Shown here: positions 3,208 to 24,000 of the stretch, piece by piece
How positions within the stretch are numbered: the stretch's first letter is position 1
How the letters are laid out: each line of letters begins with the position of its first letter
Assembly (NCBI RefSeq): GCF_001579945.1
Contig: NZ_CP011971.1
Span: 2,702,030-2,726,029 of the forward strand
DNA from: Steroidobacter denitrificans
GTDB lineage: Bacteria > Pseudomonadota > Gammaproteobacteria > Steroidobacterales > Steroidobacteraceae
Direction: 5' to 3'
Length of the DNA: 24,000 nucleotides
Notes under the pieces: generated by a model
What the model saw: only the letters and a program-made list of their open reading frames with translations
Database searches by the model: none
Told to the model about the DNA's origin: nothing
Translations under genes and position numbers: made by a program

Positions 3208-3282
3208 CGATTTATTCTTGTTATCGAATCCCGCACGTCGCTCAACAGCTGCAAGCCGTTTCGGCGCGGTCCAGCTGCCCGA

Positions 3283-3525: not shown

Positions 3526-3544
3526 CGAGGAGCCTCGCAGTCGG

Positions 3545-4060
3545 TCACGGAGCATGATCGTCGCATATGCGGCGCAGGAACAGCTCCAGATAATCGCAGA
3601 TCTCATCGATATTCGCCGTCAGGCGATGATCCGAATCGATCAGGTGCAATACCGCCTTGTATTGCCGTGCCCAGCGAATGACATTGTCCGGCGGCACCAC
3701 CTCGTCGTTCCATCCTTGCACGATCATGACGGGACAGGAGGCCGGCTGCGGCGTGTGCTGCTCATACCCCGGCATATAGAATGCTGGTGCCAGCAAAAAC
3801 AGTCCGGCGGCCGGCACCTGGCTACAGACTGAGGCAGCGACATGACCGCCCATACTGGAACCGACCAGGATCAGCTCGCCCGGCAGATCCCGGCAAACCT
3901 GCAGCACGCGCTGCACACGCGCCTGCGGCGCCATGCCACGCTGGTCCACCGATTCCACGCTCAGTCCGTGCCGGCGCGCCACCGCCGCCATGGCGAGGAT
4001 CTTCGTCCCCCAGGGTTCGCCGTCCTGGCCGTGGCAAAAAACGATATGAGAGCGGCTCAT
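3545..4060 (-). CDS. Alpha/beta-fold hydrolase (YqiA-like esterase)
   Basis: 171 aa with the nucleophile elbow GSSMGG and later candidate Asp (GWNDEVVP) and His (DSDHRL) residues. The N-terminus [10 protein letters not shown] is typical of small serine esterases. The start overlaps the ttcA stop (ATGA at 4057-4060). Confidence 0.7.
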
Positions 4061-4911: not shown

Positions 4912-4955
4912 TCCTAAAATTCTCCACTCCGGGCGCGGCGCGGCCGCCGAGGCGC

Positions 4956-7900: not shown

Positions 7901-8090
7901 TGATCTTGGACTCGACGATTTCCGCCGATGCGCCTCGATACAAGGTATCGATACTGACGATGGCAGGCTGCACATCGGGTGTTTCACGTACCGTGAGGCG
8001 CGTGGCCGCCATCACACCCAGGATCGTCAGCAGCAAGCTCACGACCATCGCGAAGACGGGGCGCCGAATGGAAATATCGGACAGGATCAT
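4956..8090 (-). CDS. RND-family efflux transporter, inner-membrane permease (AcrB/HAE1-like)
   Basis: 1044 aa with the typical N-terminus [16 protein letters not shown]. Large periplasmic loops alternate with TM bundles, and [12 protein letters not shown] and [10 protein letters not shown] blocks are present. The start overlaps the adaptor stop (ATGA at 8087-8090). Confidence 0.93.
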
Positions 8091-9367: not shown

Positions 9368-9560
9368 GGCCAGCCTTGATGCATCTCTAAGTCCAGTCAG
9401 GCGCCGCGGGTGCGGCATCAACGAGATCCACGCCCGGAGCCGAGCGTCCCGGTAGGATTGAGAGTGAATTGTACCGGCTAAGTTCAGTATTGCCGGCACG
9501 CCGGCCGGAATCCCGGCGAACTGAATCCGTTATCGCCGGGGCGCCCGACAATACCGAACC

Positions 9561-9584
9561 GCGGGTGAGCGCATTCTCACCCGC
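9561..9584 (-). terminator. GC-rich hairpin downstream of cysK (possible weak intrinsic terminator)
   Basis: GCGGGTGAG-cgcatt-CTCACCCGC forms a 9-bp stem with a 6-nt loop. It begins 22 nt after the cysK stop on the minus strand. The trailing sequence (GGUUCGGUAUUGU) is only moderately U-rich, so this is not a textbook terminator. Confidence 0.3.
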
Positions 9585-9605
9585 GCAGGTGCCTCCCCCG
9601 CCGGA

Positions 9606-10550
9606 CTAAAGCGGTTCGGCGTCGGAGGCTTCGTTGATACCTTCGAATAAAGGCGTGGACAAATAGCGTTCCCCGGTATCCGGCAGCATGGCCAGAATTA
9701 TCGAACCCTGCGGCGCACCCTGTGCGACCTGCAGTGCGGCCGCAAACGTCGCGCCCGAGGAAATACCGCAAAAAATACCTTCCTTCGACGCAAGCTCACG
9801 TGAATACTGGATCGCCGCGTCATCCGTCACCGTGACGATCTGGTCGCAGACCGAGCGATTCAGTACGGCCGGCACGAAGTCGGGCGTCCAGCCTTGGACT
9901 TTGTGGGATTTGAACTCCGCCCCCGTCAGCAAAGACGCATTGGCCGGCTCTGCGGCGATAATGCGGGTCTGCGGCCGCGCCTTCTTGATGATTTCCCCGG
10001 CGCCCGTCAGGGTGCCGCCGGTACCCCAGCCGCTCACCCAGAAGTCGAGGCGCCGGCCGGCGAAATCGCTGAGGATTTCCGGGCCGGTGGTATTGCGGTG
10101 ATACGCCGGGTTCGCCTCGTTCTCGAACTGGCGCGCCAGAAACCAGCCATGCTTCTGCGCCAGTTCCGCGGCCTTGACCACCATGCCGCTGGCCCGCCCG
10201 GCCGCGGGGGTCAGCACAACCTTGGCACCCAGCATACGCATGACCTTGCGGCGTTCCACCGAGAAGGACTCCGCCATCACGGCGACGAAGGGATAGCCCT
10301 TTGCCGCACAGACCATGGCCAGCGCAATGCCGGTATTGCCGGAAGTGGCCTCGACCACCGTCTGCCCCGGTTTCAGCACGCCGCGCTGCTCCGCGTCCTC
10401 GATGATGGCGATCGCCAGGCGATCCTTCACCGACGCCAGCGGGTTGAAGAACTCGCATTTCACATACATCTCGACATGCGCTGGGGCGAGCCGATTTATC
10501 TTGACGATGGGTGTGCGGCCGATCGTACCGAGTATGTTGTCGTAGATCAT
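9606..10550 (-). CDS. cysK: Cysteine synthase A (O-acetylserine sulfhydrylase)
   Basis: 314 aa with the PLP-lysine motif NPLASVKDR, plus TSGNTG, GWGTGGTLTG, GISSGA and a C-terminal GERYLSTPLF. Confidence 0.9.
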   Translation of the reverse strand: MIYDNILGTIGRTPIVKINRLAPAHVEMYVKCEFFNPLASVKDRLAIAIIEDAEQRGVLKPGQTVVEATSGNTGIALAMVCAAKGYPFVAVMAESFSVERRKVMRMLGAKVVLTPAAGRASGMVVKAAELAQKHGWFLARQFENEANPAYHRNTTGPEILSDFAGRRLDFWVSGWGTGGTLTGAGEIIKKARPQTRIIAAEPANASLLTGAEFKSHKVQGWTPDFVPAVLNRSVCDQIVTVTDDAAIQYSRELASKEGIFCGISSGATFAAALQVAQGAPQGSIILAMLPDTGERYLSTPLFEGINEASDAEPL

Positions 10551-10613
10551 GGTGTTTGCTGATGTTTGGTCTAACGATGAAAAAAGCAGGATGGCTCGAG
10601 GACACCCTGGATA

Positions 10614-10706
10614 TTATTTCCAGAGCGTTATTCCCAGGATGTTATTCCCAAGACGGACCTGTGAGGCGATAATGGTACCAGCCCTGCATCCAGCAGGCTT
10701 ATTCCA
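10614..10706. repeat. Four copies of a TTATT(T)CCA motif in the cysK/glgA divergent intergenic region
   Basis: The copies are ttatttcca (10614-10622), ttattccca (10628-10636), ttattccca (10642-10650) and ttattcca (10699-10706). The two central copies are exact GTTATTCCCA decamers 14 bp apart. They lie 64-156 bp upstream of the cysK start. Confidence 0.4.
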
Positions 10707-10915
10707 TTATTGCACTGCCTAATGCCTGTGGTTAGGGTAACCGCCCTGGTCTGCAGGCGATGGCGTATGCCGCAGACCGTACGATACCCGCTCCGGGTTG
10801 CCGGCGTTCGCCGGCATGCAGCTTTCGCAGGGGGCCGTCTCGCCCACAAGCGCACCGGTCCAAGGACCGTTTTTCCTGCCCACCGCCGTCCCACCCATTC
10901 CAGACATCTCTCTAC

Positions 10916-12376
10916 ATGATGAGCTTGCGCATCTGTTTCATCGCCTCCGAAGTCGCACCGCTGGCAAAATCCGGCGGGCTGGCGGACGTCGCCAGCGCAC
11001 TGCCGCGCGCCCTGCATGAACAAGGCTGCGATGTGCGCGTATTCATGCCCCTGTATGCCGGCATGAGCAGTGTGGGGTTGACTCTGCAGCCGCTTTCCCA
11101 GGCTCGCGCCATCGAATTGCATCTGGGCGCGCAGCGCTACGAAGTAGCGCTGCTGCACACGCAGATCCCGGGATCCTCCGTGCCCCTGTATCTGGTGCAT
11201 TGTCCAGCAGCCTACGATCGTCCCACGCTGTACACCGGTGACGCCGATGAACATCTGCGCTTCTTGATCCTGCAGCACGCGGCTCTGCAAGGCTGTCAGC
11301 GCCTGGGCTTCGCGCCGCAGATCGTTCATTGCAATGACTGGCATACGGCGCTGATGCCCTCGATGCTCCGGTCGCTGTACGCCTGGGATCGGTTGTTCGC
11401 CGATGCGCGCTCGCTCCTGTCGATCCACAATATCGGCTATCAGGGTAATTTTCCGGCCGCGACGATCGCCGACGTCGGCGGCGATATCGGTGTCCAGCCC
11501 GGCACGCTTGCCGACGGCACATTCAACTGGTTGCGCGAAGGCGTCCTGCACGCCGATGCGGTCACCACGGTCAGCCCGACTTATGCCCGGGAAATATGCA
11601 CACCCATGGGTGCGCACGGGCTCGATGCGACCCTGCGCAGCCGCGCCGACGGCGTAACCGGCATACTCAACGGCGTCGACTACCAGGAATGGAACCCCGC
11701 CGCCGATCGCTACCTGAAGCACCATTACACGCCGCAGGACATGAGCGGCAAGGCCGCGACCAAACGCACCTTGCTGGATTGGTTCAATCTCGAGACGGGG
11801 GATGCACCGCTGCTGGGCATCGTTTCACGCCTCACCGTACAGAAGGGTTTCGACCTGTTGTTCGAGGTGCTGCCCGACATCCTGACTACACGGGATCTGG
11901 GCATCCTGGCGCTGGGCAGCGGCGATGCGCTCTATGAGACGTTTTTCACCGGCCTGCAGCAGCGCTTCCCGGAACGGGTCATGTTCCATTGCGGCTACAG
12001 CGATGAACTGGCGCATTTGATCGAAGCGGCCAGCGATATGTTCCTGATGCCCTCGATGTACGAACCCTGCGGCCTGAACCAGATGTACAGTCTGAAATAC
12101 GGCACCGTGCCGATCGTGCGGCGCACCGGCGGACTGGCCGATTCGGTGCAGGCGTGGGATCCGTCCACCCGTAGCGGCACGGGCATCGTATTCAATGACT
12201 TCGATGCCTCGGCGGTACGCTGGGCCCTGGGCACGGCGTTGGATCTCTACCAGGATCGCGACACCTGGAAACGACTGGTTCGCAACGGCATGGCGCAGGA
12301 TTTTTCCTGGCCGCGCCAAAGCCGGCAATACCTGGACCTTTATCGTCGTTTATTGGGCGCCCCGGTCCGGATCTGA
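10916..12376 (+). CDS. glgA: Glycogen synthase (ADP-glucose type)
   Basis: The track ORF starts at 10760. The conserved N-terminus MMSLRICFIASEVAPLAKSGGLADV (KSGGLADV motif) begins at ATG 10916. The C-terminal block is PSMYEPCGLNQMYSLKYGTVPIVRRTGGLADSV. Confidence 0.92.
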   Translation: MMSLRICFIASEVAPLAKSGGLADVASALPRALHEQGCDVRVFMPLYAGMSSVGLTLQPLSQARAIELHLGAQRYEVALLHTQIPGSSVPLYLVHCPAAYDRPTLYTGDADEHLRFLILQHAALQGCQRLGFAPQIVHCNDWHTALMPSMLRSLYAWDRLFADARSLLSIHNIGYQGNFPAATIADVGGDIGVQPGTLADGTFNWLREGVLHADAVTTVSPTYAREICTPMGAHGLDATLRSRADGVTGILNGVDYQEWNPAADRYLKHHYTPQDMSGKAATKRTLLDWFNLETGDAPLLGIVSRLTVQKGFDLLFEVLPDILTTRDLGILALGSGDALYETFFTGLQQRFPERVMFHCGYSDELAHLIEAASDMFLMPSMYEPCGLNQMYSLKYGTVPIVRRTGGLADSVQAWDPSTRSGTGIVFNDFDASAVRWALGTALDLYQDRDTWKRLVRNGMAQDFSWPRQSRQYLDLYRRLLGAPVRI

Positions 12377-12398
12377 TCCGGATCTCCGCGGCGCGGCA

Positions 12399-12905
12399 TC
12401 AACGTACCATCTGCAGGTTGACGATGCCGCTGCGCTGAAACGGGATTTTCCGGAGCAGTCCCAGATCGGTACGCACCGACCCTTCCAGTATGTAATTGAC
12501 CTGGTCGCGCCCGTTCAAGCGTGACAACAGCCGTCCCGCGCTGCTGACGAAATTCGTGCGCACCGTCATGTCGAATTCCGTAGCTCCCAAGGCCGGGACG
12601 ACAAAGGCATTGTGCGTGGAGCCTTCGGCGAAGCTGTCTCCTTCCAGGAACAATTTGTAGTCGATGGCCTTGATCGGCAACTGAAGATCGTTCGGGTTCT
12701 CCACGTTCAGACGCACCAGGAACTGCTGATTGAACAAATCCGCGGAGGTCATCGCAATACTGACGATGCTCAGGCGCGGCGTTTCGACCCTGGGGGCCAG
12801 CGCGCTGCAACCGGCCGTTCCCGCCGCCAGCACGATCAGCAGCGCAGCCATCCGGCCGGACGAGGAGAAGCTTCGAGACATGAAGGCAGCGAAAGACTTG
12901 AGCAT
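12399..12905 (-). CDS. LEA_2 / WHy-domain lipoprotein
   Basis: Signal peptide with lipobox LAAGTAGC, followed by LVRLNVENPNDLQLPIKAIDYKLFLEGDSFAEG, which is typical of LEA type-2 (water-stress/hypersensitive-response) domains. The start could instead be an internal Met (MSRSF or MAALL). Confidence 0.7.
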   Translation of the reverse strand: MLKSFAAFMSRSFSSSGRMAALLIVLAAGTAGCSALAPRVETPRLSIVSIAMTSADLFNQQFLVRLNVENPNDLQLPIKAIDYKLFLEGDSFAEGSTHNAFVVPALGATEFDMTVRTNFVSSAGRLLSRLNGRDQVNYILEGSVRTDLGLLRKIPFQRSGIVNLQMVR

Positions 12906-13040
12906 AGAGACTCCAAAAACTGGGGACTGGACACTGGGGCAGGTAACAGGGAACCGGAATCGCAGACCTGCATGGCTTGCCGCCCTGACGGATCGTTCGC
13001 CTGAACGTTCGATCGCAGGTTCAAGTGCGCAAAAACCGGA

Positions 13041-14360
13041 TTATCCGCGTTTCAGGCTGGACAACATGCTGCGGGTCACCAAGGTCACGCCTGCCTCGGT
13101 GATATAGAAGCGCCGCGCATCCTCTGCCGGATCGACGCCGATACGAGTGCCGGCCGGCACCACCGAACCGGTGTCGATGATCGCTCTCTTGATCGTACAG
13201 CCCGGCCTGATCAACACGTCCGGAAAAACGACGGCGCGCTCTATATAGCTGCGCTCATCGATACGCACATTGGAAAACAGCAGCGACTGATTCACATGCG
13301 CGCCGGAAATGATGCAGCCGCCGGATACCATGGAATTGACGGCCATGCCGCGCCGGCCCTGTTCATCGAGCACGAATTTGGCCGGTGGATACTGGCGCTG
13401 ATAGGTCCAGATCGGCCATTTCTCATCGTATATATTGAGTTCAGGATCGACGTGCACCAGTTCCATGTTCGCATCGTAGAACGCATCCACCGTGCCTACG
13501 TCGCGCCAATAGCGCTGCACCCGGGTATGCACATCGGTGAACGGGTAGGCATACACCTTCAGCCTGTCGAGCGCCTCGGGAATGATATTGCGTCCGAAAT
13601 CGTGCGAGGTACCCGGGCGATTCGCCTGCTCTTCCAGCAGCCGGTACAGCAGGTTGGCCTTGAATACATAGATGCCCATGGAGCCCAATGCGAATTGTTC
13701 GCGGCCCGGAACGCCCTCGGGTTCGCGGGGCTTCTCGGAAAATTTCGTGATACGGTATTCCGTATCGACGCTCATGACGCCGAAGGCCGTCGCCTGCTCG
13801 CGCGGCACCTCCACGACACCGACGGTGATATCCGCCTTTTTCTCCACGTGCTTGGCCAGCATTGGACCATAGTCCATCTTGTAGATGTGATCGCCGGCCA
13901 GCACCAGGATATGACGCGGATGATGCAGTTTGAGAATCTCCAGGTTCTGATAGAGCGAATCGGCGGTTCCGCGATACCACATCTCCCCCATCTGCTGCTG
14001 CGCCGGAATCACCTCGACGAACTCGCCGAGTTCGCCGCGCAGGTAACTCCAGCCGCGCTGGATATGTTGGATCAGGGAGTGCGCCTTGTACTGGGTCATC
14101 ACCGAGATGCGGCGAATACCGGAATTGACGCAATTCGACAGCACAAAATCGATGATGCGGAACTTGCCGCCGAAGGGAGTGGCCGGTTTGCAGCGAAAAT
14201 CCGTCAGATGCTTCAGGCGCTCGCCGCGCCCGCCCGCCATGACGACCGCCATGGTATGGCGCGTGATGCGGCTGACATATCGTCGAAACTCCATTTGCCG
14301 GCGCACAGGCCGCTCGTCCTGGAATCCGCTTGTCGCTGTCGGCGCTGTATTCTGCTTCAT
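13041..14360 (-). CDS. glgC: Glucose-1-phosphate adenylyltransferase
   Basis: AVVMAGGRGERLKHLT Gly-rich loop, FGVMSVD, FSEKP, and a C-terminal left-handed beta-helix region. The start is ambiguous and none of the candidates has a good SD. The track uses TTG 14435; ATG candidates are 14423, 14360 (chosen, 440 aa) and 14294. Confidence 0.9.
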   Translation of the reverse strand: MKQNTAPTATSGFQDERPVRRQMEFRRYVSRITRHTMAVVMAGGRGERLKHLTDFRCKPATPFGGKFRIIDFVLSNCVNSGIRRISVMTQYKAHSLIQHIQRGWSYLRGELGEFVEVIPAQQQMGEMWYRGTADSLYQNLEILKLHHPRHILVLAGDHIYKMDYGPMLAKHVEKKADITVGVVEVPREQATAFGVMSVDTEYRITKFSEKPREPEGVPGREQFALGSMGIYVFKANLLYRLLEEQANRPGTSHDFGRNIIPEALDRLKVYAYPFTDVHTRVQRYWRDVGTVDAFYDANMELVHVDPELNIYDEKWPIWTYQRQYPPAKFVLDEQGRRGMAVNSMVSGGCIISGAHVNQSLLFSNVRIDERSYIERAVVFPDVLIRPGCTIKRAIIDTGSVVPAGTRIGVDPAEDARRFYITEAGVTLVTRSMLSSLKRG

Positions 14361-14503
14361 GTCTGGACGCTCTGGCGCCATGTGCGATCGGCTCGGTGCG
14401 GCCCGGTGGGTCTCGACACGCATGTTAGCCGACAATGGCCTGACTGCCGACCGTGTTGGCGCAACTCATTCCGCACGGCCCATTCTGCCCATGCCGCAGC
14501 TAT

Positions 14504-14545
14504 TCCTGCCATCCTGGTCATGCCATCCTGATCATGCCATTCTGA
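14504..14545. repeat. Three tandem 14-bp units in the glgC / DUF192-gene divergent promoter region
   Basis: The units are tcctgccatcctgg (14504-14517), tcatgccatcctga (14518-14531) and tcatgccattctga (14532-14545). A related ccattctgcccatgcc lies at about 14479-14494. Confidence 0.6.
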
Positions 14546-14566
14546 CGGGCCGGGTCGAGATGATAG

Positions 14567-15796
14567 ATGATGATGCCTCCACGACACCTGATGTCCTGCT
14601 GTCTGTTGGCGATGAACCTGCACACGGTCAGTGCGGGTGCCGCCGACCCAGCCGGGGATGCCGTCCTGAAGCCGGCGGCTGCCGATTCGGTCACGAAAAC
14701 CTATCCGCCGGCCCCGCGGCCGGCTCATGAATCCGAGCCCTTGGCAGATCAGACGCCGCGATGCCTGGCGCAGGGCGACGGTTACCTGCGGGCCCGCATC
14801 GCCGGCTCGATCCAGGGCGAATTGGACTGGGGCAACGAAGGCACGCACTGTACCGGCACGATACGTCCTGCCGGCCAAGGCATCCGGATACACTTCAGCC
14901 GCTCGGAGGCCGCAGCCGACGACATCGAGGCACACGGCGCAGCCGAGGATGCGACCCGCCCGTCCGCTCGCCAGAGCAAGACCGACACCGGCCGCCCTGC
15001 CAATGTAGGCGCCGCGCACCGGCTCGTCCTGGTATTCGGCATTACCGGTCTGCGCGAAGGGCAGTCCGCAAAGGCCCAACCCGTCAATCTCACTGTGATC
15101 CGCGAAGGCCGTGGACAGTTCTACAGCACGCAGGGTGACGACAAGTGCCTGCTGGACGAAGTGATCCAGACGCCCATCATCGGCCTGCCGAGACGCTTGC
15201 GCAGCTATCGGATCGTCGCCCGCGGTTTCTGCACCGAGCCGGCGCGCGCAGTACGCGGTCCGGGAGCGATCCTGTTGTCCCGGTTCGATTTTGCCGGACA
15301 GGTGGACTTCGAGACACAAGACACGGAAGATGAATCCCACATGGCCATGAAGGTTCAGGGTACGGCTCAAGATGCCGGGAATCCTGACGCGCAGGCGCTG
15401 GACCGGTTCTTTCCCCGCGCCCACCTGCGGATCGCCACGCCCGATGCGCGGCTTCACGATTTCGATGTATGGCTGGCCGATAACGATGCGCGCCGTGCGC
15501 GGGGTTTCATGCATATCGAGCAACTCGATGCGAACGCCGGCATGCTGTTTCTATTTCCGCGGCAAGAACGCATCGCCATGTGGATGAAGAACACCCATGT
15601 ATCGCTGGACATGCTGTTCGTGCGCGCCGACGGGACGGTGGATCGTGTGGTCGAGCACACCAAGCCCCTGTCGCTCGAGACGATCGAGTCGATCGATCCG
15701 GTGGCGGCCGTGATCGAGCTCAAGGCCGGAACGGCCGCCCGCCTCGGAATCCGCAAGGGCGCACAAGTAATGCATCCGGCGTTCGGACGGCCCTGA
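14567..15796 (+). CDS. Secreted protein: about 280-aa N-terminal region of unknown function fused to a C-terminal DUF192 domain
   Basis: 409-aa ORF with a signal-like N-terminus (MSCCLLAMNLHTVSA|GA). The last ~124 aa match the DUF192 pattern (ADNDARRARGFMH...GMLFLFP...MWMKNTHVSLDMLFV...VIELKAG). No in-frame stop separates the two parts. Confidence 0.65.
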   Translation: MMMPPRHLMSCCLLAMNLHTVSAGAADPAGDAVLKPAAADSVTKTYPPAPRPAHESEPLADQTPRCLAQGDGYLRARIAGSIQGELDWGNEGTHCTGTIRPAGQGIRIHFSRSEAAADDIEAHGAAEDATRPSARQSKTDTGRPANVGAAHRLVLVFGITGLREGQSAKAQPVNLTVIREGRGQFYSTQGDDKCLLDEVIQTPIIGLPRRLRSYRIVARGFCTEPARAVRGPGAILLSRFDFAGQVDFETQDTEDESHMAMKVQGTAQDAGNPDAQALDRFFPRAHLRIATPDARLHDFDVWLADNDARRARGFMHIEQLDANAGMLFLFPRQERIAMWMKNTHVSLDMLFVRADGTVDRVVEHTKPLSLETIESIDPVAAVIELKAGTAARLGIRKGAQVMHPAFGRP

Positions 15797-15876: not shown

Positions 15877-16659
15877 ATGGATCGCTTCGACCTCGTCCAG
15901 TCGTTCATCGAACAATGCGAACGAGCCACACATACCGACGATCTGAAACTGGCCTTCCAGCACGCACTGGGGCGTCTGGGATTTCGCTACTTCGCCTGCG
16001 GTTTCCATGTCGATCCCCTGCATCCTCGCGATGCGATCATGATGCTCGATTATCCCCGCGCATGGGTCGCAATCTACAGCGAACAGCAGCTACATCGCAT
16101 CGATCCGGTATTCGTGCGTGCCGGCCGCACGGCGCTGCCCTTCTTTTGGGACAGCAGGGAATTCAGGATCGGCGTGCGGCCGCGTCAGCGCAAGATGCTG
16201 GCGGAGGCGCGCCGCTTCGGCATCGCGCACGGCTATACGATTCCGATTCATTCGCCGCGATCTCCGCTGCCGCTGCGCGCCTCCTGTTCCGTCATTCCCG
16301 ATACATCTTCGATTCATCGTCACAGCTATTTTGCCGTCCAGCTGATGGCCGGCCATCTGTTCGAGTGCGCCGCCCGCCTGAGAAACTTGAATCGCCCTGC
16401 CGTCGAAACGCCTCAACTGTCCCGGCGGCAACGGGAATGTCTGGAACTGGTTGGACAAGGAAAAAGCGACTGGGAAATCGCGATGATCCTGGGCATCAGC
16501 GCACATACGGTCCATACATATATCACCGCCGCGATGCGGCGGTTCCAGGTTTCGACACGCCAGCAGGCGCTGGTGTGTGCGCTTGCCTGGCATCAGATAT
16601 CGTTCGGCGATGTACTGCGCGCGCGGCCGGTCGCGGATGACGGCAGCGCCGAGGCATGA
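15877..16659 (+). CDS. LuxR-family acyl-homoserine-lactone-responsive transcriptional regulator
   Basis: Strong SD (AAGGAAGG, 6-nt spacer). The N-terminal autoinducer-binding domain carries the conserved W-x3-Y...DP...PFFW residues (YPRAWVAIYSEQQLHRIDPVF...LPFFWD). The C-terminal LuxR HTH is LSRRQRECLELVGQGKSDWEIAMILGISAHTVHTY. Confidence 0.9.
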   Translation: MDRFDLVQSFIEQCERATHTDDLKLAFQHALGRLGFRYFACGFHVDPLHPRDAIMMLDYPRAWVAIYSEQQLHRIDPVFVRAGRTALPFFWDSREFRIGVRPRQRKMLAEARRFGIAHGYTIPIHSPRSPLPLRASCSVIPDTSSIHRHSYFAVQLMAGHLFECAARLRNLNRPAVETPQLSRRQRECLELVGQGKSDWEIAMILGISAHTVHTYITAAMRRFQVSTRQQALVCALAWHQISFGDVLRARPVADDGSAEA

Positions 16660-16683
16660 AAACCGAAACACCCTCACGAGCGG

Positions 16684-16703
16684 ATACCCCTGATCAGGCG
16701 AAT
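16684..16703. promoter_or_regulatory. lux-box-like 20-bp dyad upstream of the LuxI gene
   Basis: In ATACCCCTGATCAGGCGAAT, 8 of 10 positions are dyad-symmetric, and the core CCTGATCAGG (16689-16698) is a perfect palindrome. The centre is 33 bp upstream of the centre of a -10-like CACAAT (16724-16729). That is the spacing expected for a box centred near -42.5. The luxI SD GGAGG is at 16747-16751. Confidence 0.4.
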
Positions 16704-16758
16704 TCACAAAAGAGTGCAAGCATCACAATCTTGCCCGGAGTGAATCGGAGGTCGAGGG

Positions 16759-17499
16759 ATGATCTTCATCGTCAATGCCGAGAATCGCCGTTTTCTCGAT
16801 TCTGCTCTGATGCAGATGTATCGTCATCGCAAAGCGGTGTTCGTCGACGAACTCGGCTGGAACATCCCGCACGCCGGCGGCCTGGAAATGGATCGTTACG
16901 ATCGTGAAGACACGATCTACCTGGTTGCCCGTCATCGCGGCGAGCGGCGGATTCAGGCCTCCGCGCGCCTACTGCCGACCCTGGGCCCGCATCTGATGAG
17001 CGACGTGTTCCCGCATACTCTCCACGGCGGCATACCACGCGGCGAGCGGATCTGGGAAGCCTCTCGTTTCTGTCCTGCACCGGACCTCGGCGGCCGGCGG
17101 CGCCGGCTGGCGCTTCTTTGGGAAGTCTTCTGCGGACTCATGGAAACCTCGCTGCTGTTCGGTATCGAGCGCATCGTCTTTCAGGCCGGCACCGCGCTTC
17201 TACCCCTGGCGCTGCGCTGCGGCTGGGATGCCGCCGTGCTCGGTCCGACCCTGCCCTGCGGCAATGATCGTGTCACAGCCGTCGGCGTCGATATCACCCT
17301 GCAAGGGCTGCGCTCCATGCGTGAACGTTTCGGCATTCCGTCCCCCGTCACACGCTTCGTGACACCCGCCGACGTCGCTGTATGCCTCGGCTGGCTGCGG
17401 CAACACGAGGCCGACATTCCCGTTCAATTACCGACGAGCGCCGGACAGGACGATGGCCGCCGTGCGCAGGAAGACTTCGTCCCGCCGCGCTCCACATGA
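16759..17499 (+). CDS. Acyl-homoserine-lactone synthase (LuxI family)
   Basis: Conserved LuxI residues and blocks are present: RHRKAVFVDELGW, EMDRYD, YLVA, ARLLPT, IWEASRF. At 246 aa it carries a ~40-aa C-terminal extension relative to typical ~200-210-aa LuxI proteins. Confidence 0.9.
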   Translation: MIFIVNAENRRFLDSALMQMYRHRKAVFVDELGWNIPHAGGLEMDRYDREDTIYLVARHRGERRIQASARLLPTLGPHLMSDVFPHTLHGGIPRGERIWEASRFCPAPDLGGRRRRLALLWEVFCGLMETSLLFGIERIVFQAGTALLPLALRCGWDAAVLGPTLPCGNDRVTAVGVDITLQGLRSMRERFGIPSPVTRFVTPADVAVCLGWLRQHEADIPVQLPTSAGQDDGRRAQEDFVPPRST

Positions 17500-17511
17500 T
17501 CGTACCCCGCG

Positions 17512-18435
17512 ATGTCACGCCGGCAACGACTGCATGTCCCGGGAGGGATCTATTGCGTTACTCAATTCGGCAGTGCCCGACAGCCCCTTTTTCCAGCGCC
17601 CGGCCATCACGGAATTTTCGAGCGCTGCTTCAGCGCCGCGCTCGAGCGCACCGGTACCCGCGCCATCGCCTATTGCTGCCTGCCATGCCGGATCCACCTG
17701 GTGCTGCAGGTCGGCACCGTACCGCTCGGACGCTTCCTGCAAGGCTATGCCGGTCCTTACGTGCGGACGATACATTCGCAGACCGGCGAATCCGGCCACC
17801 TGTTCGCCCGACGTTATCACGCCGTGCTCATCGATCCGCAAGGTTGGCTGCCGTCCATGATCCGTTATATCCATTATCTACCGGTAACGCTCGGCCTGGC
17901 GGCGGACCTGGGCGCCTATCCTTACAGCAGCCATTTCGATTATCTGGGCTGGCGAAACCGCGCCTGGTTGCACCAGCATATCGCGTTGCGGTCGATGGAA
18001 ATGCATGAAGATGCACGCGGAGATTACACGCGACTGATGCAGCGTCCACCCGCCGCGGGAGAGATCCGTCGGCTCCAGGCCGGTGAGGTGGATCCCCGCG
18101 TACTCGGCGACGGCAATTTCGTCGCTACGCTACCGCGCAGCGTGCGGATACCGCGATCCGCCATGTCGCTGGAGAAGATTACCCGCAACGTCACCCTCAT
18201 GCTCAACGTGAAGCACACCGAACTGTTTTCACGATCCAGGTTGCGCCGTCCGGCACTCGCACGCTCCGTCATCGCCTGGCATGCCATCGAACTGGGCGTC
18301 GCCCGCCTGAGCACCATCGCGAATTATCTCGGACGCGATCCGGCAACGATCACACTCGGCATCGCCCGTCATCGAGTGCGCCGCCCCGAGTTGTTCCGGC
18401 TGGATGCATTCCGTCATCTGGTGCCGCTGGGGTAA
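17512..18435 (+). CDS. Y1 (IS200/RAYT-like, COG1943-type) transposase-fold protein with C-terminal DnaA-C-like helix-turn-helix; probably domesticated
   Basis: The N-terminal ~150 aa align to the REP-associated tyrosine transposase pattern: RRQRLHVPGGIYCVTQFG, AYCCLPCRIHLVLQV, GHLFARRYHAVLID, RYIHYLPVTLGLAADLGAYPYSSH. The C-terminal ~90 aa (SRSRLRRPALARSVIAWHAIELGVARLSTIANYLGRDPATITLGIARH) resemble the DnaA domain-IV HTH. The gene starts 12 nt after the luxI stop. Confidence 0.7.
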   Translation: MSRRQRLHVPGGIYCVTQFGSARQPLFPAPGHHGIFERCFSAALERTGTRAIAYCCLPCRIHLVLQVGTVPLGRFLQGYAGPYVRTIHSQTGESGHLFARRYHAVLIDPQGWLPSMIRYIHYLPVTLGLAADLGAYPYSSHFDYLGWRNRAWLHQHIALRSMEMHEDARGDYTRLMQRPPAAGEIRRLQAGEVDPRVLGDGNFVATLPRSVRIPRSAMSLEKITRNVTLMLNVKHTELFSRSRLRRPALARSVIAWHAIELGVARLSTIANYLGRDPATITLGIARHRVRRPELFRLDAFRHLVPLG

Positions 18436-20309
18436 GCTCCAAGCTGCGTCACGTCGCGCCGGAATCCCTGCCGATGTTGAGCGTGCCACAGGCCCGCGTA
18501 CACACCCCGGCATTGCAGCAATTCGGCATGGCTGCCCTGTTCCACCAGCATGCCGCCGTCGAGCACCAGGATCCGATCCGCTGTCGTAACGGTCGCAAGC
18601 CGATGGGTGATCGCCAGAACGGTGCTTCCCGCAGTGATCCGTTGCAGTTCGCTCAGCACACCACGCTCCGTTGCACCGTCCAGCGATGCCGTCGCCTCGT
18701 CCAGCACGATGATGCGTGCTCGTCCGAGCACTGCGCGTGCGATCGCGATACGCTGGCGTTCGCCGCCTGAGAGCCGCACGCCGCGCTCGCCCACCGGCGT
18801 ATCATAGGCCTGCGGAAGGCTCATGATGCGGTCATGAATATTCGCCAGGCGCGCAGCCCAAATGATTTCTTCGCGTGGCGCGTCGCGTCCCACGGCGATA
18901 TTTCTGGCGATCGTGTCGTGAAACAGGATGACATCCTGGGGCACGACGGCAATCTTGCGCCGCAAGACAGCCAATGGCATCTGCTCCACAGGCATACCAT
19001 CGATACGTATCGTACCCTGGCTTGGACTGTACAGACGCAGCAGCAGGCGGATCAGCGTGGATTTACCTGCGCCGCTGCCCCCCACGATCGCTACCGTATC
19101 GCCGGCATCGATCCGAAAGGAGATCGAACGCAACGCCGGCGCCCCTTCCTCATAGGAGAATTCGACCCCGTCGAATTCCACATCGCCCCGAACCATGGGG
19201 ACCGTGCGCTCATCTGCCACAGCCATTGCAAACGGTGCTTCCGGCCGCTCGGCCAGGACACCCAACAGCCGCTCGACATATGCGAACGCCTGGGCGCTGT
19301 CGCGCAATGCCAGCCCAAGCATCTCCAATGGAGCCACCAGTCGTATCACATACGCATGGACCAGCACGACATCTCCAAAGGTCATGGCGCCGCGCAACAC
19401 ATCGCGAGCGGCGAAAATCACCGTCGCGCCGAGACAAGCCGCAAAAATGCCACCCAGCAATACGCCGTTGGCGGCGCGCCGGCTAAAGAATCCCCGCCAG
19501 GCAGCCTCGATGGCACGCAACGCAGCGCGATAGCGCGCACCGGCAGCAGCTTCAGCATTGAAGCATTTCACGGCTTCGCAATTCAGCAAGCTATCGGTAA
19601 ACATCGCATGAGCCGCGATATGTGTCTGTGCGATCCGGCGTGCCGGCCCTTCGATATCCGCCGCGCCGTGCTGGAACGCCAGCACGTACGCCGCGGTTGC
19701 CGCCAGCAATACTGCCAGGTAGATTTCATGCTCGAGCCGGACGAGAACGACGGCGATCAACCCAAGTTCCAGCAACACGGGAAACACCGTGCACAGTGCC
19801 GCGCTCAACAGCAGGCGACAGCCCTGGACGCCCTGTTCAGCCAGCTGCCCTATCGACCCCAAGCGCCCCCGGACATGCCAGTGCAAAGGCAAACACAGTA
19901 GATGCTCGAACACTCGCCGGCCGATCGCCCGACATACGCGCTGCTCCGCACATCCATGGCGATACAGGCGCCACTCGCCGATCAGGCGCGTCGAATACTG
20001 ACCCACTGCATACAGCAAGGCCAGGGCGGTGACGGCAAATTGCTCCTCTCCCGCCCTCTCCAGCACATCCAACAGGAATTTCAGCACCAGCGGCGTCAAC
20101 GCCGCCGCGCAGGCACCCGCCACCGCCAGCAAGATCACCATCCGCAAATCACGCCGCACGGAGCGATCCGCCGCCCGCCGAAACAGCAGCCAGACATCAC
20201 GCCATACGTGAAAGCGAAAGAGCCGCGCGTGACCGGGGAAGGCAGAGGCATTCATCGGTACACGATGTAAAACCCTGCCGGACATCGCAAGCGCCCTTGC
20301 CGATATCAT
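18414..20309 (-). CDS. ABC exporter, fused permease/ATPase (candidate McjD-like lasso-peptide export/immunity protein)
   Basis: An N-terminal 6-TM exporter domain is followed by Walker A GGSGAGKST, signature LSGGERQRIAIARA and Walker B IIVLDEATS. The start may be ATG 20309, 20285 or 20255. The 3' end overlaps the convergent gene by 22 bp (18414-18435). Confidence 0.88.
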   Translation of the reverse strand: MISARALAMSGRVLHRVPMNASAFPGHARLFRFHVWRDVWLLFRRAADRSVRRDLRMVILLAVAGACAAALTPLVLKFLLDVLERAGEEQFAVTALALLYAVGQYSTRLIGEWRLYRHGCAEQRVCRAIGRRVFEHLLCLPLHWHVRGRLGSIGQLAEQGVQGCRLLLSAALCTVFPVLLELGLIAVVLVRLEHEIYLAVLLAATAAYVLAFQHGAADIEGPARRIAQTHIAAHAMFTDSLLNCEAVKCFNAEAAAGARYRAALRAIEAAWRGFFSRRAANGVLLGGIFAACLGATVIFAARDVLRGAMTFGDVVLVHAYVIRLVAPLEMLGLALRDSAQAFAYVERLLGVLAERPEAPFAMAVADERTVPMVRGDVEFDGVEFSYEEGAPALRSISFRIDAGDTVAIVGGSGAGKSTLIRLLLRLYSPSQGTIRIDGMPVEQMPLAVLRRKIAVVPQDVILFHDTIARNIAVGRDAPREEIIWAARLANIHDRIMSLPQAYDTPVGERGVRLSGGERQRIAIARAVLGRARIIVLDEATASLDGATERGVLSELQRITAGSTVLAITHRLATVTTADRILVLDGGMLVEQGSHAELLQCRGVYAGLWHAQHRQGFRRDVTQLGAYPSGTR

Positions 20310-20670
20310 TCACCGTGTATGGGTCGGGCTGCCGCGTCCACCGGCAGCTCAACCGAGCGCCCCCGACATCGTCCCAATGCCATTCTCAGTCATTGGCGGC
20401 CATTCTCGAAATCGTCCCACAAACCTTTTCAACAATGATTCTATAGTTGATGCTGCCATGATCTTCTGTTGATTTTGCAGCGATTTTCGAGCGATTGCCT
20501 AGGCGACCTTCCAGGTGATCCTCGAAGAAATAATCTTCGATGATTCCTGGATACCTTCCGGGTACTTCCTGGACGATGCAGCAGACAGCCGCCTGGACGC
20601 TGCCCTGCTTGTCCGCTTCGATTTCTCCGAAAACATCCGAAGAAACAGGTTCATGACCGATGGTGTCAGA

Positions 20671-20757
20671 GTTTGCTTGTTTGCTTTCTTTTCTGGATCG
20701 ACCGGCGCCGAAGGGTGATGTCGGCGCACCGGTTCGTCTACAAGCAAATTAGCAAAC
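20671..20757. repeat. 87-bp composite imperfect palindrome in the AT-rich spacer
   Basis: The outer arms are gtttgcttgtttgctt (20671-20686) and aagcaaattagcaaac (20742-20757), complementary at 14 of 16 positions. The inner arms are accggcgccga (20701-20711) and tcggcgcaccggt (20721-20733). They pair over 11 bp with a 2-nt bulge around a 9-nt loop. Confidence 0.55.
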
Positions 20758-21067
20758 TCCGGCACCGGCTCGGAATGACCGTCGCACAATGCTGGTTCAG
20801 AACGACGCATCGGCGAATCCGGGGATTTTTATTGATCGAGTCCTTCAAGCGGACAGGCTGCAAACCCCTTGAATTCCGGTATTCTCGCCCGATCCGCCTC
20901 AGGAAATCTCCACTGCGCCTGGATGGCCCCGACTCACCTGCGCGTATCCACGCGCGACCGGAAATAATTATTACAAGACTATCCCCGTTGACACCGATGA
21001 TTCTGGCGCGCACGTTGATCCCGCCACTGCGGTCGGCAATCACTCGCACTCATCGAAGGAGACAGTC

Positions 21068-21184
21068 ATGAATACGACACTGACAATGGTCGATCTGGGA
21101 GATGCACGGGTCGAGACACGGGAGATTGGAGCACGGCAGCAGCAGGACAACGAGCGTGTTCTAGGACCGAGGCCGCTGGTGTAA
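21068..21184 (+). CDS. Lasso peptide precursor (38 aa): MNTTLTMVDLGDARVETREIGARQQQDNERVLGPRPLV
   Basis: Short ORF with AAGGAG (21056-21061) 6 nt before the ATG, located directly upstream of the lasso B and C genes. It has a leader-like segment MVDLGDARVETR with Thr two residues before the putative cleavage point. Acidic residues (D, E) sit 7-9 residues downstream as ring acceptors. It is too short to appear in the ORF track. Confidence 0.75.
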   Translation: MNTTLTMVDLGDARVETREIGARQQQDNERVLGPRPLV

Positions 21185-21200
21185 TTCAGCAATAACCTTC

Positions 21201-21240
21201 GGCGGAGTGCGCGGCGCCGGTACCAGCCGCGCACTCCGCC
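21201..21240 (+). terminator. Perfect 15-bp-stem hairpin between precursor and B gene (attenuator / mRNA-stabilising structure)
   Basis: GGCGGAGTGCGCGGC (21201-21215), a 10-nt loop gccggtacca, then GCCGCGCACTCCGCC (21226-21240). It starts 17 nt after the precursor stop. No U-tract follows (ctccagcgtt), so it is not a canonical full terminator. Confidence 0.55.
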
Positions 21241-21264
21241 CTCCAGCGTTATGGCGATACGACC

Positions 21265-22143
21265 ATGGACATGCCTTCTTTATTCAATATCTCTCGCAGT
21301 ACATGCCCGGCCACGCTGGATTTGGATGAATGGCCGAAACCCGTGGGTTCCAGCAATGATCGAGCGCCGAACGTAACCCGGCGCCCGGGCGATGGCACGA
21401 CGCGTTTCGAGCGCCTCCCCACCTATTGGCTACCGGCCCACGTCTATACCTGTCATGTCCCCGGCGGCACAGTATTTCTGGATCTGCGTCGCAATCGTTA
21501 TCTCGGCGTCGGTGAAGCCGAAACGCAGACATTACAACGTCATGTAGCAAACTGGCAGGATGCCACTCTCGACCTGGAACGCGATTCATTCAACGAATCG
21601 ACGGCGAGGCACATTCTCGATGCGTTGGTCGAGTCCGCGCTGTTACAAACGGAATCTGAATGCAGCAGGATCTTCTCGTCAACCTCCACCGGCCTGCAGG
21701 AAGCGCGGCACGGTCTCGAGACCGTTCGGGCTTCTCATCGATCCATTCGTGCGCCAGATTTGTGGCGATTCCTGCGAAGCTGCCTTTGGGCACATTGCAT
21801 TCTGCGCACCTCGTCACTGTACGACGCTGCCCATGCCATCGAGGATTTCAGGCAGACCGGCGGTTCGATCTTATCTCCGGCGGATCCCGCACAGACTTAT
21901 CGCTGCGTACAGATCTTTCGCCGCCTGCGGCCCTACGTCTTTGCCGCACAGGACCGATGCCTGTTTCAGGCACTGGCGCTGGTGCGTTTCCTGCAGTATT
22001 ACCAGACACCCGCCACCTGGATCATCGGCGTGCGCGTCAGACCCTGGGCTGCGCACAGCTGGGTGCAACAGGACGAACTGATCCTGGATGGGACGCCCGA
22101 GTCCGTACGCGAGTACATACCGATTCTCGCCGTCGAGGCATAG
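21265..22143 (+). CDS. Lasso peptide leader peptidase, fused B1 (PqqD-like RRE) + B2 (transglutaminase-like Cys protease)
   Basis: The N-terminal part YTCHVPGGTVFLDLRRNRYLGVGEAETQTLQRHV looks like a PqqD-type leader-recognition element. The C-terminal part carries the Cys/His/Asp arrangement DRCLFQALALVRFL...WAAHSWVQQDELILDG, typical of McjB-type proteases. Confidence 0.85.
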   Translation: MDMPSLFNISRSTCPATLDLDEWPKPVGSSNDRAPNVTRRPGDGTTRFERLPTYWLPAHVYTCHVPGGTVFLDLRRNRYLGVGEAETQTLQRHVANWQDATLDLERDSFNESTARHILDALVESALLQTESECSRIFSSTSTGLQEARHGLETVRASHRSIRAPDLWRFLRSCLWAHCILRTSSLYDAAHAIEDFRQTGGSILSPADPAQTYRCVQIFRRLRPYVFAAQDRCLFQALALVRFLQYYQTPATWIIGVRVRPWAAHSWVQQDELILDGTPESVREYIPILAVEA

Positions 22144-22149
22144 GCTGCC

Positions 22150-24000
22150 GTGCTGCGCTTCATGGGATGGGTCTGGGATGCGAGAGAGCCGCAGCAGGCC
22201 GAATTCGCTCGCTCGCTGCAACGAACACTGCTCGCTAGGCTGAACTGGCAGATGGCATTGGATACGCGTGGGGCGCAATGCTTCCTCACTGGCGGACACC
22301 CGAGTGCCCAATACCAGGTGCTGCCTCACGGCGCCGGCATCGTGCTCGGCACCCTGTTCGAGCAGCGTGCCGACCCCGTCGATGATTCGGCCTACCGGCC
22401 TGCGATCATCGAACCGCGGGATATACAGCCGCTCCTGAATAGCCAGGGGCGGCGACTGATCGAAAATTACTGGGGCAACTACCTCGCCATCCTGTGCGAC
22501 GAACATCGCAGCGGCATCTGCATCATCAAGGATCCCACCGGCCCTCTGCCCTGCTTCATCACCTCGCTGCACGGCCTTACGATGCTGTTTTCCTCTGTGT
22601 CCGATTGCCTGAATCTCGGCGCATTCTCCTTCACCGTCAATCCCGCCTACTTGAGAGATCGAGTTTCGGGCCGGCACGAAACCTCCCACGGCGCACTCAA
22701 CGAAGTCCGCCCGCTGTATGGCGGCGAGTGTCTTCACTTCGACTTTCGCACGCACCCCATGACGCGCACCACCCGGCTCCATTGGCACCCATTGCGTCTG
22801 GCCTACGATACGAATCCGGTTGAACACCCCGCCCAGGCGGCCGCCATGGTGCGCGCCGCGGTGCGCGCCTGCACCCGCACGCTGGCTGCCGAGCACGATG
22901 CCGTGCTGCTGCGGCTCTCCGGAGGCCTGGACTCCTCCATCATCTGCGCCTGCTTGGCCGATATGCCCTCACGACCCACTGTGACCAGCTATACCTACTA
23001 CGATCCGCACGGACCCGCGGACGAGCGGCCTTGGGCACGGCTCGCCGCTGCGCACGCCGCCTTTGAACACCTCGAATATCCTTTCGACCCACAAACGATC
23101 GATCTGCGTCGGCGGCCCAAACTGCTCCCATCGGTATACGTGGTATCGATACTCGAATATCTCGATCTTTCGAAGCTCGAGCGGCAGCTGACCGCCGACC
23201 GTGGCGCAACCGCCATATTCTCAGGCGACGGCGGCGATTCCGGCTTTTGCAGCGACTCGATCGCGCTTGCCCTCGTCGAATACTTGAAGCGCCACGGCCT
23301 TCGTTCAAACGCTCTGCTCCTGGCGACCCAAATCTCGCTCTATACCCAACGTTCGTCCTGGCAGGTGTTGGCCAACTCCCTGCGACGCTGGTTTCGCGGT
23401 CAGACGCCGGCCGATCAACAGGAAGTCCAGGAGACCATCAACCGGCTGGCCCATCCGGATCTGCGATCCCGTACAGCTGTCGACTCTACGCCCGTACATC
23501 CCTGGTTTCGCGACTGTGACGAGACTCCCTGGGCACTTATGCGCCGGCTCGGTAATCTGCCGAATCCGATGCCCTACTACGACCTGTCCGCTGATCCTGA
23601 CACCAAAACACCGGAGGTCGTCGCGCCGCTGTATGCGCAACCGGCCGTGGAACTGTTTTTGCGCATTCCCCTGTACGTCCATTTTTTTGAGGGAAAGGAT
23701 CGTGGGTTGGCACGGGACGCCTTTGCCGGCATGGTACCCGCGCCCATACTCCAGCGTCTGTGGAAAGACCGTGCCCCAGGCTTTCTGGAAGAAATCGTGA
23801 GCCGCAATCGGGAAGCGTTGCGTGAACTCCTGCTCGATGGTGTACTGGCGGCATCGGGCCTATTGGACCGTTCGGCCACCGAACAGGCGCTGTCGCCGAT
23901 GCCTTCGAAAAGCCTCGTTGTTCCGATCGAGTTGTTCAGTCATCTGGACACGGAGCTCTGGGCGCGCCAATGGATGGACGGCCGGCACGAACCCGGAATC
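22150..24000 (+). CDS. Lasso peptide lactam synthetase / cyclase (asparagine synthetase B-like, McjC family), 3' end outside window
   Basis: I translated this frame by hand. It is open from GTG 22150 (GAGG at 22135-22138; alternative ATG 22162) to nt 24000, giving 617 codons with no stop. It contains the Asn-synthetase PP-loop AVLLRLSGGLDSSIICA (about 22906-22950) and later FSGDGGDSGF. It is not in the supplied track because it has no stop codon inside the window. Confidence 0.85.
   Translation, partial: MLRFMGWVWDAREPQQAEFARSLQRTLLARLNWQMALDTRGAQCFLTGGHPSAQYQVLPHGAGIVLGTLFEQRADPVDDSAYRPAIIEPRDIQPLLNSQGRRLIENYWGNYLAILCDEHRSGICIIKDPTGPLPCFITSLHGLTMLFSSVSDCLNLGAFSFTVNPAYLRDRVSGRHETSHGALNEVRPLYGGECLHFDFRTHPMTRTTRLHWHPLRLAYDTNPVEHPAQAAAMVRAAVRACTRTLAAEHDAVLLRLSGGLDSSIICACLADMPSRPTVTSYTYYDPHGPADERPWARLAAAHAAFEHLEYPFDPQTIDLRRRPKLLPSVYVVSILEYLDLSKLERQLTADRGATAIFSGDGGDSGFCSDSIALALVEYLKRHGLRSNALLLATQISLYTQRSSWQVLANSLRRWFRGQTPADQQEVQETINRLAHPDLRSRTAVDSTPVHPWFRDCDETPWALMRRLGNLPNPMPYYDLSADPDTKTPEVVAPLYAQPAVELFLRIPLYVHFFEGKDRGLARDAFAGMVPAPILQRLWKDRAPGFLEEIVSRNREALRELLLDGVLAASGLLDRSATEQALSPMPSKSLVVPIELFSHLDTELWARQWMDGRHEPGI

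Follow-up and report, generated by a model that had tools for sequence, protein, structure and literature searches.

The 24 000-nucleotide stretch of the Steroidobacter denitrificans genome analysed here (contig NZ_CP011971.1, positions 2,702,030–2,726,029; hereafter the window, in which all positions below are numbered) closes with a group of four genes that in all likelihood constitutes a functional-looking class II lasso-peptide cluster of the metanodin-like Steroidobacteraceae type. The group comprises a precursor gene (A), a leader-peptidase gene (B) and a cyclase gene (C), which follow one another in the order A-B-C with a gap of 6 nt between B and C, and a divergently oriented gene (D) for an ATP-binding cassette (ABC) exporter. 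All four open reading frames (ORFs) are uninterrupted within the window, and, judged from its genes, the S. denitrificans cluster appears intact and adds a member, experimentally uncharacterised, to a known lasso family. The single unusual trait of an otherwise fairly ordinary cluster is its predicted ring, which begins with Glu and not with Gly. An intact, uncharacterised A-B-C locus with D upstream and divergent had been proposed in an initial annotation of this DNA, and the proposal is supported by domain matches and by comparison with the wider family. For this comparison, an alignment of the C family was scanned over representative genomes, yielding 76 loci, mostly from Steroidobacteraceae, and L077–L083 were added through look-ups of close homologues, which makes 83 related loci altogether. 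The relatives include L077 and L078, with 84% identity in C, and the metagenomic loci L081–L083, with approximately 81%. Among the related loci, nearly every C homologue is directly preceded by a B homologue, and C homologues always adjoin B and A homologues, apart from the loci without a detectable B that are described below. The gene identities, the motifs, the family membership and the logic of the cleavage site, the last drawn from approximately 70 homologous precursors, are treated here as established at the level of sequence.

Gene C encodes a predicted ATP-dependent lasso cyclase resembling asparagine synthetase. Its frame opens with a GTG at position 22150 of the forward strand and stays open for 617 codons to the end of the window (22150–24000). 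The ORF lister omitted it because it runs off the window end, and the frame is present as the initial annotation had described it, with the SGGLDSS motif and a length of at least 617 codons. A public S. denitrificans protein that is 100% identical to the C fragment has 620 amino acids, so that three codons of C lie beyond the window. The product matches the asparagine synthase model PF00733 with 84 bits, and its PP-loop SGGLDSS occupies residues 257–263 (22918–22938). The N-terminus, VLRFMGW, contains no Cys2, and none is found in the consensus of 20 homologues; C is therefore not a glutamine-hydrolysing AsnB. The earlier concern that C might be a genuine AsnB, or that B and C might fail the lasso models, has not been borne out, as C lacks the N-terminal Cys and B passes the lasso B2 model. 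A sequence search of the PDB with the C-family profile returned weak matches to AsnB and β-lactam synthetase and no solved lasso cyclase.

Gene B (21265–22143, forward strand; 292 amino acids) is predicted to encode a RiPP recognition element (RRE; RiPP, a peptide that is ribosomally synthesized and then post-translationally modified) at approximately residues 50–125, fused to a transglutaminase-like cysteine protease at approximately residues 160–292. The product passes both PF13471 (60.3 bits; cut-off 26) and NF033537, the 'lasso peptide biosynthesis B2 protein' model (60 bits; cut-off 33), and the identical NCBI protein of S. denitrificans is already named a lasso B2 protein. An alignment of 44 homologues shows no or almost no variation at Cys232, His264 and Asp275. 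An AlphaFold model built from the same alignment has a predicted local distance difference test (pLDDT) score of 86.9, with low confidence for the first 50 residues or so, and its N-terminal domain consists of three strands plus helices. The best PDB fold matches of this domain are TbiB1 (5v1v; probability 1.0, TMt 0.63) and TfuB1 (6jx3), after which the further matches are other RREs; the B-family sequence profile also matches TfuB1 (E = 0.0075). The lasso B2 match, the conservation of the catalytic residues and the model and profile matches to lasso RREs argue that B is a fused RRE-protease, in agreement with the PqqD-like domain and Cys-His-Asp protease first ascribed to this ORF, the RRE part being recognized through the structure model and the profile match.

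The precursor gene A (21068–21184, forward strand) encodes 38 amino acids, MNTTLTMVDLGDARVETREIGARQQQDNERVLGPRPLV, and is preceded by the strong Shine–Dalgarno sequence already attributed to this 38-codon ORF, an AAGGAG at 21056–21061 that ends 6 nt before the ATG and is also kept in L081 and L082. By family comparison, the product divides into the leader MNTTLTMVDLGDARVETR (21068–21121) and the predicted core EIGARQQQDNERVLGPRPLV (21122–21181), followed by the stop codon (21182–21184). A search upstream of B in the related loci found approximately 70 homologous small ORFs directly upstream of B/C homologues, which share the leader pattern ...(L/I)x(L/V)(V/I/L)DLGDAxxET(R/K). The motif DLGDAxxET(R/K) is followed at once by a variable core with Asp or Glu at positions 8–10. 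In more distant loci, what comes after it is a canonical Gly1 core whose residue 8 or 9 is Asp or Glu, and this fixes the register and places the hallmark Thr at position −2. The leader in the window ends in ...VETR, and the core has Asp9 as the ring acceptor. In L081–L083, a 38-residue gene is called, with the nearly unchanged leader MNTTLTLVDLGDARFETR followed by the core QPGIPEELDNLSVVGVRQLV; the sequences part from that of the window precisely at core position 1, and Asp9-Asn10 is kept. A six-frame translation of the 24 kb window contains a single match to the family leader pattern, and this match, the 38-residue gene in the relatives and the approximately 70 homologues together indicate that A is more than a chance ORF.

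Cleavage after ETR is thus predicted to release the core EIGARQQQDNERVLGPRPLV starting with Glu1, and we consider it probable, with some reserve, that this core is closed by a Glu1–Asp9 macrolactam into a nine-residue ring; the calculated monoisotopic mass of the predicted lasso is 2256.2087 Da. The predicted core contains no Cys, which places the peptide in class II, as had been proposed initially. Among 66 distinct cores of the family, position 1 is occupied by Gln in 33, Gly in 14, Cys in ten, Glu in five, Ala in two, and Asp and Met in one each. A ring starting with Glu is rare, though no longer unprecedented; metanodin (Asn1; 2025) and palassoptide A2 (Glu1; 2026) are the published forerunners of a peptide of the present kind. 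Leader residues 4–18 also give a weak NCBIfam match to the benenodin family (NF033522; E = 1e-3, 18.9 bits, cut-off 33); membership of that family was rejected, since the score lies below the cut-off and the core is unrelated.

Gene D (18414–20309, reverse strand; 631 amino acids) is oriented divergently from A-B-C and encodes an ABC half-transporter with membrane and ATPase domains. The initial annotation had recognized this two-domain architecture, and the product matches PF00664 and PF00005; its Walker A (GGSGAGKS), signature (LSGGERQ) and Walker B (IIVLDEA) motifs are intact. Orthologues occupy the same upstream-divergent position in L009, L018, L022, L030, L042, L047, L052 and L081, and lie immediately downstream of C in L050, L053, L055, L060, L063 and L066. 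Altogether, they adjoin lasso A-B-C genes in at least 15 loci of several genera, in these two arrangements, and are 36–53% identical over the aligned stretch. It is this recurrent synteny, and not any likeness to McjD, that assigns D to the pathway, in which it would probably serve as the exporter and immunity pump for the peptide.

The non-coding segments of the cluster carry several features conserved among the relatives. Between A and B, a perfect 15-bp, G+C-rich stem-loop without a T-run lies at 21201–21240 on the forward strand. The 83-nt region that contains it (21180–21262) folds with −43.1 kcal/mol and z = −4.75, and none of 200 shuffled sequences folds as well. L077 and L081 retain the stem, with substitutions that are paired, and a hairpin with z < −2 follows 82% of 71 family precursors. 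An attenuating or stabilizing hairpin after the precursor gene is commonly invoked for lasso clusters, and the stem-loop probably acts here as a transcript attenuator or stabilizer that sets the ratio of A to B and C, with the precursor mRNA in excess. An Rfam scan of 16500–24000 gave no match. In the spacer between D and A, the block 20985–21067 (forward strand) is conserved with L081 and L082 far above the rest of the spacer and may represent the promoter or 5′ untranslated region of A. It contains a −35-like hexamer, TTGACA, at 20988–20993 and no good −10 hexamer, and a consensus promoter scan of its forward strand found nothing. The same spacer holds two inverted copies of an 18-mer, AAGCAAACAAGCAAACTC at 20669–20686 on the reverse strand and, 55 nt away, AAGCAAATTAGCAAACTC at 20742–20759 on the forward strand. 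Their common pattern, AAGCAAAYWAGCAAACTC, matches the window twice, 100 shuffles giving an expectation of 0.00, and both arms lie inside islands conserved with L081 and L082, so that the pair is a candidate for the operator sites of divergent promoters. A family-wide role for this GCAAAC-type 18-mer as an operator was rejected, as precursors from beyond the S. denitrificans lineage do not have it upstream. Also rejected was a 103-residue ORF on the reverse strand (20499–20810) as a gene; it has no family match, and its indels in L081 are not multiples of three.

Taken together, these elements suggest the following pathway. Translation of the 38-residue precursor would start from the strong ribosome-binding site, and the N-terminal RRE domain of B would bind the 18-residue leader with its hallmark Thr at −2; the protease domain of B, with Cys232, His264 and Asp275, would cleave after Arg18. 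C would then spend ATP to adenylate the side chain of Asp9 and join it to the freed α-amine of Glu1 while the tail is threaded, to give a 20-residue lasso with a nine-residue ring and no disulfide. The stable hairpin after A would probably hold the A transcript above those of B and C, and the finished peptide would leave the cell through the divergent half-transporter D. The ring residues, the export by D and a regulation by the neighbouring LuxR/LuxI and transposase-like helix-turn-helix (HTH) genes, which are described below, are the parts of this scheme that we infer from position and family comparison.

Several points weigh against this interpretation. The cluster is known here from its genes and its product is a prediction, and a literature search found no paper tying S. 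denitrificans to a lasso peptide. The curated lasso-cyclase models score C far below their cut-offs (NF033561, 53.9 against 300; NF033535, 19 against 525), which says little, as their names imply narrow subfamilies (albusnodin/ikarugamycin-family and 'exception'-type). Of the Pfam models proposed at the outset for checking the locus, PF13471, PF00733 and PF00664/PF00005 matched, while that for PqqD found no domain in the N-terminus of B, even at E ≤ 10; the fold-search E-values for B are weak (2e-3), with one domain only aligning. The 5′ end of B also differs from that of its relatives: in the segment 21330–21380, the GTG start used by L077 and L078 reads GTA, and a 4-nt deletion relative to the same loci joins another upstream frame to B, adding approximately 36 non-conserved residues, so that the translation start of B may be defective. 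Were the cluster a decaying remnant, B would be made poorly or not at all from its rearranged start and S. denitrificans would produce no peptide; the conservation of B, which begins only at about residue 50, and the low confidence of the model before that point would fit such decay. We regard this as highly improbable, since none of the four frames is interrupted, ATG codons in frame with B occur at 21265 and 21271, 25–31 nt past the hairpin, and both the catalytic and RRE parts of B and the ATP-binding and ABC motifs of C and D are intact. The true start of B is uncertain among ATG 21265, ATG 21271 and GTG 21343, and NCBI calls the 292-residue form. With regard to the product, Gly3 and Glu11 are also present in the core, so that other rings may formally be possible, and no basic residue of B or C was found to co-vary with an acidic core position 1 (six acidic versus 51 other clusters). 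If the same cluster cut its precursor one or two residues later, the ring would be Ile2–Asp9 (eight residues; 2127.166 Da), or Gly3–Asp9 (seven residues) or Gly3–Glu11 (nine residues), both with 2014.082 Da. Gly is the commonest first residue of characterised lasso peptides (PMC13632552), distant members of the same cyclase family have Gly1, and the acidic residues at positions 9 and 11 would give accepted ring sizes with Gly3. Such a cut is nevertheless quite unlikely, because the conserved Thr, which occupies −2 in all canonical Gly1 relatives of the set, would then fall at −3 or −4; the divergence between the window and L081 begins exactly after ETR; and metanodin begins directly after Thr-x. 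The Gly3 register is made unlikely, moreover, by the lack of positional conservation of Gly among the sister cores, many of which have no Gly before the acceptor Asp (for example QLPILPLFID). Cleavage directly after ETR, giving Glu1, remains the preferred reading.

The assignment of D calls for similar care. The initial annotation had called it a McjD-type exporter, a label that we reject on sequence: the membrane domain scores only 29 bits against McjD (4pl0) compared with 83–91 bits against Atm1, ABCB7 and ABCB6, and D is closer to Atm1/ABCB7. D could accordingly stand outside the pathway as an Atm1-like exporter of metal or glutathione conjugates, with the peptide staying intracellular or leaving by another route, and such a gene is missing between A and the transposase-like gene in about two thirds of the closest related clusters. 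We judge this unlikely: the presence of D orthologues beside A-B-C in at least 15 loci and in two arrangements is hard to credit to chance, and the close relative L081 keeps D at the same place.

The sequence immediately downstream of C is represented in the relatives. In L077–L083, C is followed by a convergent, AtxE2-like S9 peptidase gene, which in L077 and L078 encodes 793–871 amino acids and comes within approximately 10–50 nt of C, with a TonB-dependent receptor gene behind it; the contigs of L081–L083 hold only its 3′ end. The best solved matches of the peptidase are AtxE2 (5txc; E = 1e-22) and the sphingopyxin isopeptidase (5jrk), and its best NCBIfam match is NF033523, 'Atxe2 family lasso peptide isopeptidase', with 184 bits against a cut-off of 400. 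By analogy with these closest relatives, genes for an AtxE2-like isopeptidase and for a TonB-dependent receptor probably lie just past the window in S. denitrificans as well, and their products would re-import the peptide and linearise it. The initial annotation had already named an isopeptidase and a receptor among the genes that might come after C. Exporter-type and isopeptidase-type clusters have been presented as alternatives in a review (PMC7549694). In the present set, L022, L030, L050, L054, L055, L060, L063, L066 and L081 combine an ABC exporter with an AtxE2-like S9 peptidase in one cluster, and clusters with both usually also have a TonB receptor. In L081, a single contig carries LuxI, the transposase-like gene, D, A, B, C and the 3′ end of the S9 peptidase. 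One may tentatively imagine, as a rather doubtful extension of the scheme above, a circuit gated by quorum sensing in which a lasso with an acidic first residue is made, exported, re-imported and destroyed: LuxR/LuxI and a domesticated transposase-like HTH protein would switch on A-B-C, the Atm1-like pump would export the Glu1–Asp9 lasso, and the TonB receptor and AtxE2-like isopeptidase would retrieve and linearise it.

The genes upstream of the cluster that enter into this speculation are a LuxR-type receptor gene (15877–16659, forward strand; PF03472, 104.7 bits; PF00196, 59.4 bits) and a gene for a LuxI-type acyl-homoserine-lactone synthase (16759–17499, forward strand; PF00765, 88.2 bits); the pair thus carries the autoinducer synthase, the autoinducer-binding domain and the GerE HTH. 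A gap of 12 nt separates the luxI stop codon from the transposase-like gene, and the functional surroundings of the cluster probably reach upstream to include all three genes. LuxI homologues are also found beside the lasso loci L036, L039, L050, L056, L072, L073 and L081, in several unrelated genera. No lux-box-like palindromes were found upstream of luxR, luxI or the transposase-like gene or in the D–A spacer, and a literature search for a link between LuxI and lasso clusters found none. Control of the cluster by LuxR/LuxI through quorum sensing is possible.

The transposase-like gene (17512–18435, forward strand) encodes 307 amino acids with a RAYT/IS200-like N-terminal domain and a DnaA-C-type HTH, and a public S. 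denitrificans protein is identical to its product. Its matches to PF08299 (28.5 bits) and NF047646 (49.8 bits; cut-off 80) are below the cut-offs, and PF01797 was not detected in the protein. Of the HUH motif a single His is left (IHLVLQ), and the Tyr shows a conservation of only about 75%. A homologue lies upstream of A-B-C and on the same strand in 28 of the related lasso loci. The degenerate HUH motif, the score below cut-off and the fixed syntenic place in 28 loci led us to reject an active IS200/RAYT Y1 transposase, and the gene looks like one for a domesticated DNA-binding protein and not like a mobile element. Homologues with 43–45% identity occur in L084–L088 in a fixed housekeeping context, between the methylcrotonyl-CoA carboxylase genes and a DNA glycosylase gene, without lasso genes. 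In a quick neighbour-joining tree these housekeeping copies nest among the lasso-linked ones, so that the association is one-way only, the family is not lasso-specific and the idea of a lasso-specific regulator was rejected; a regulatory role of the gene at this locus is hypothetical. The 3′ ends of the transposase-like gene and D overlap convergently by 22 nt (18414–18435), against 4 nt in L081. The rest of the window (760–15796) has an ordinary housekeeping look, with genes for a PlsB-type acyltransferase (760–3207), an AcrB-type resistance-nodulation-division pump with an HlyD-type adaptor (4956–9499), a pyridoxal-phosphate-dependent enzyme (9606–10550), a nucleotidyl transferase with a GlmU-like C-terminal domain (13041–14435) and a DUF192 protein (14567–15796).

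The wider family shows further variation in ring type and cluster layout. In most Gln1 and all Cys1 cores of the related Steroidobacteraceae loci (for example QLPILPLFIDSISSFGLLPL), the sole suitably placed acidic residue is at position 10, and in several of these cores it is the only acidic residue of the whole core. The precursors concerned belong to L001–L010, L013, L015, L018–L025, L028, L031, L034, L037, L040, L042 and L047. An acceptor at position 10 implies, if the predicted register holds, a ten-residue macrolactam ring; the alternative is cleavage one residue later, with the Thr at −3. A 2026 review lists natural rings of seven, eight and nine residues only (PMC13352647). In L002–L010 and L037, two lasso clusters stand tail to tail (A-B-C facing C-B-A), with degraded copies in L015 and L040. 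The second precursor of these loci has Cys at both ends (for example CSLTIGPYFDFLYGPGHTRC), which suggests a disulfide from the ring to the C-terminus in addition to a Cys1–Asp10 ring. In L011, L012 (Steroidobacter flavus), L016, L017, L029 and L041, the gene directly upstream of C is a precursor with the family leader, and the locus has no detectable B homologue; upstream of the precursor of L012, no candidate leader-peptidase ORF was found. S. flavus has a complete cluster elsewhere (L023), whose B may act in trans. When L001–L025 are compared with L014, L022, L026, L030, L032, L036, L038, L039, L045 and L049, in the clusters with predicted Asp10 rings C is directly followed by a TonB-dependent receptor and an isopeptidase is lacking, whereas those with Asp or Glu at positions 8–9, including the lineage of the window, have an isopeptidase, usually with the receptor behind it.

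The cluster introduces no new principle: its enzymology, its organization and non-Gly first residues are already documented. Its interest is moderate and comes from the predicted Glu-initiated ring, the joint presence of an exporter and a probable importer and isopeptidase, and the quorum-sensing genes next to the cluster, all in a host that is cultured and fully sequenced. The precursors of this lineage tend to escape automated tools, since Gly is not the residue that opens the ring. Production of the peptide would supply a proteobacterial case of a Glu-initiated ring and would probe the tolerance of B and C for polar or charged first residues. The combination of exporter, probable importer and isopeptidase, and quorum-sensing genes could help to explain lasso peptides that are made and then deliberately linearised, and the circuit, if true, would provide a tractable cultured system in which to ask what isopeptidase-type lasso peptides do, for instance signalling or scavenging rather than killing.

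Among the known systems, those of microcin J25 (mcjABCD) and capistruin (capABCD) share with the S. denitrificans cluster the precursor, a fused RRE-protease B, an Asn-synthetase-like C and an ABC half-transporter, and leader removal followed by ATP-dependent lactam formation is the mechanism common to clusters of the mcj/cap type. Here, in contrast, D lies upstream and divergent instead of downstream, is remote from McjD, and the first core residue is Glu instead of Gly. The astexin (AtxE2) and sphingopyxin clusters of Alphaproteobacteria resemble the relatives L077 and L078 in the convergent S9 peptidase followed by a TonB receptor; they differ in that the relatives' peptidase stays below the curated AtxE2-family cut-off and that an exporter co-occurs here. 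The benenodin family, the sole curated-library match of the precursor, shares the proteobacterial leader motif ...LG.A...T and has an unrelated core. To our knowledge, metanodin is the only characterised peptide of the present Steroidobacteraceae lineage. It derives from biosynthetic gene cluster (BGC) 89 of a soil metagenome, assigned to an uncultured member of the Steroidobacteraceae (J Nat Prod 2025), and starts with Asn1, two residues after the conserved Thr, as determined by tandem mass spectrometry; its authors also mention a relative with Gln at the first core position (PMC12670498). The two clusters belong to the same bacterial family and share the order of A, fused B and C, a Thr at −2 before a polar first residue other than Gly, and, in the closest relatives of the window, the inverted S9 'isopeptidase' gene after C. 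They differ in the first residue (Asn1 versus Glu1) and in the divergent exporter found here, the metanodin cluster being described without an ABC transporter; this comparison rests on the published description of that cluster and not on its gene sequences. A Glu-initiated class II ring, as predicted here, is found in palassoptide A2 from ancient oral Actinomyces (JACS 2026), whose Glu1–Glu8 ring shows that lasso cyclisation can proceed with an acidic first residue, and a large-scale analysis cited in the same paper found every residue except Pro at position 1 (PMC13632552). Palassoptide A2 is otherwise distant from the S. denitrificans peptide: it is actinobacterial and unrelated in sequence, is made with split B1 and B2 proteins, has an eight-residue ring closed on Glu and shares no exporter or isopeptidase context with the cluster described here.

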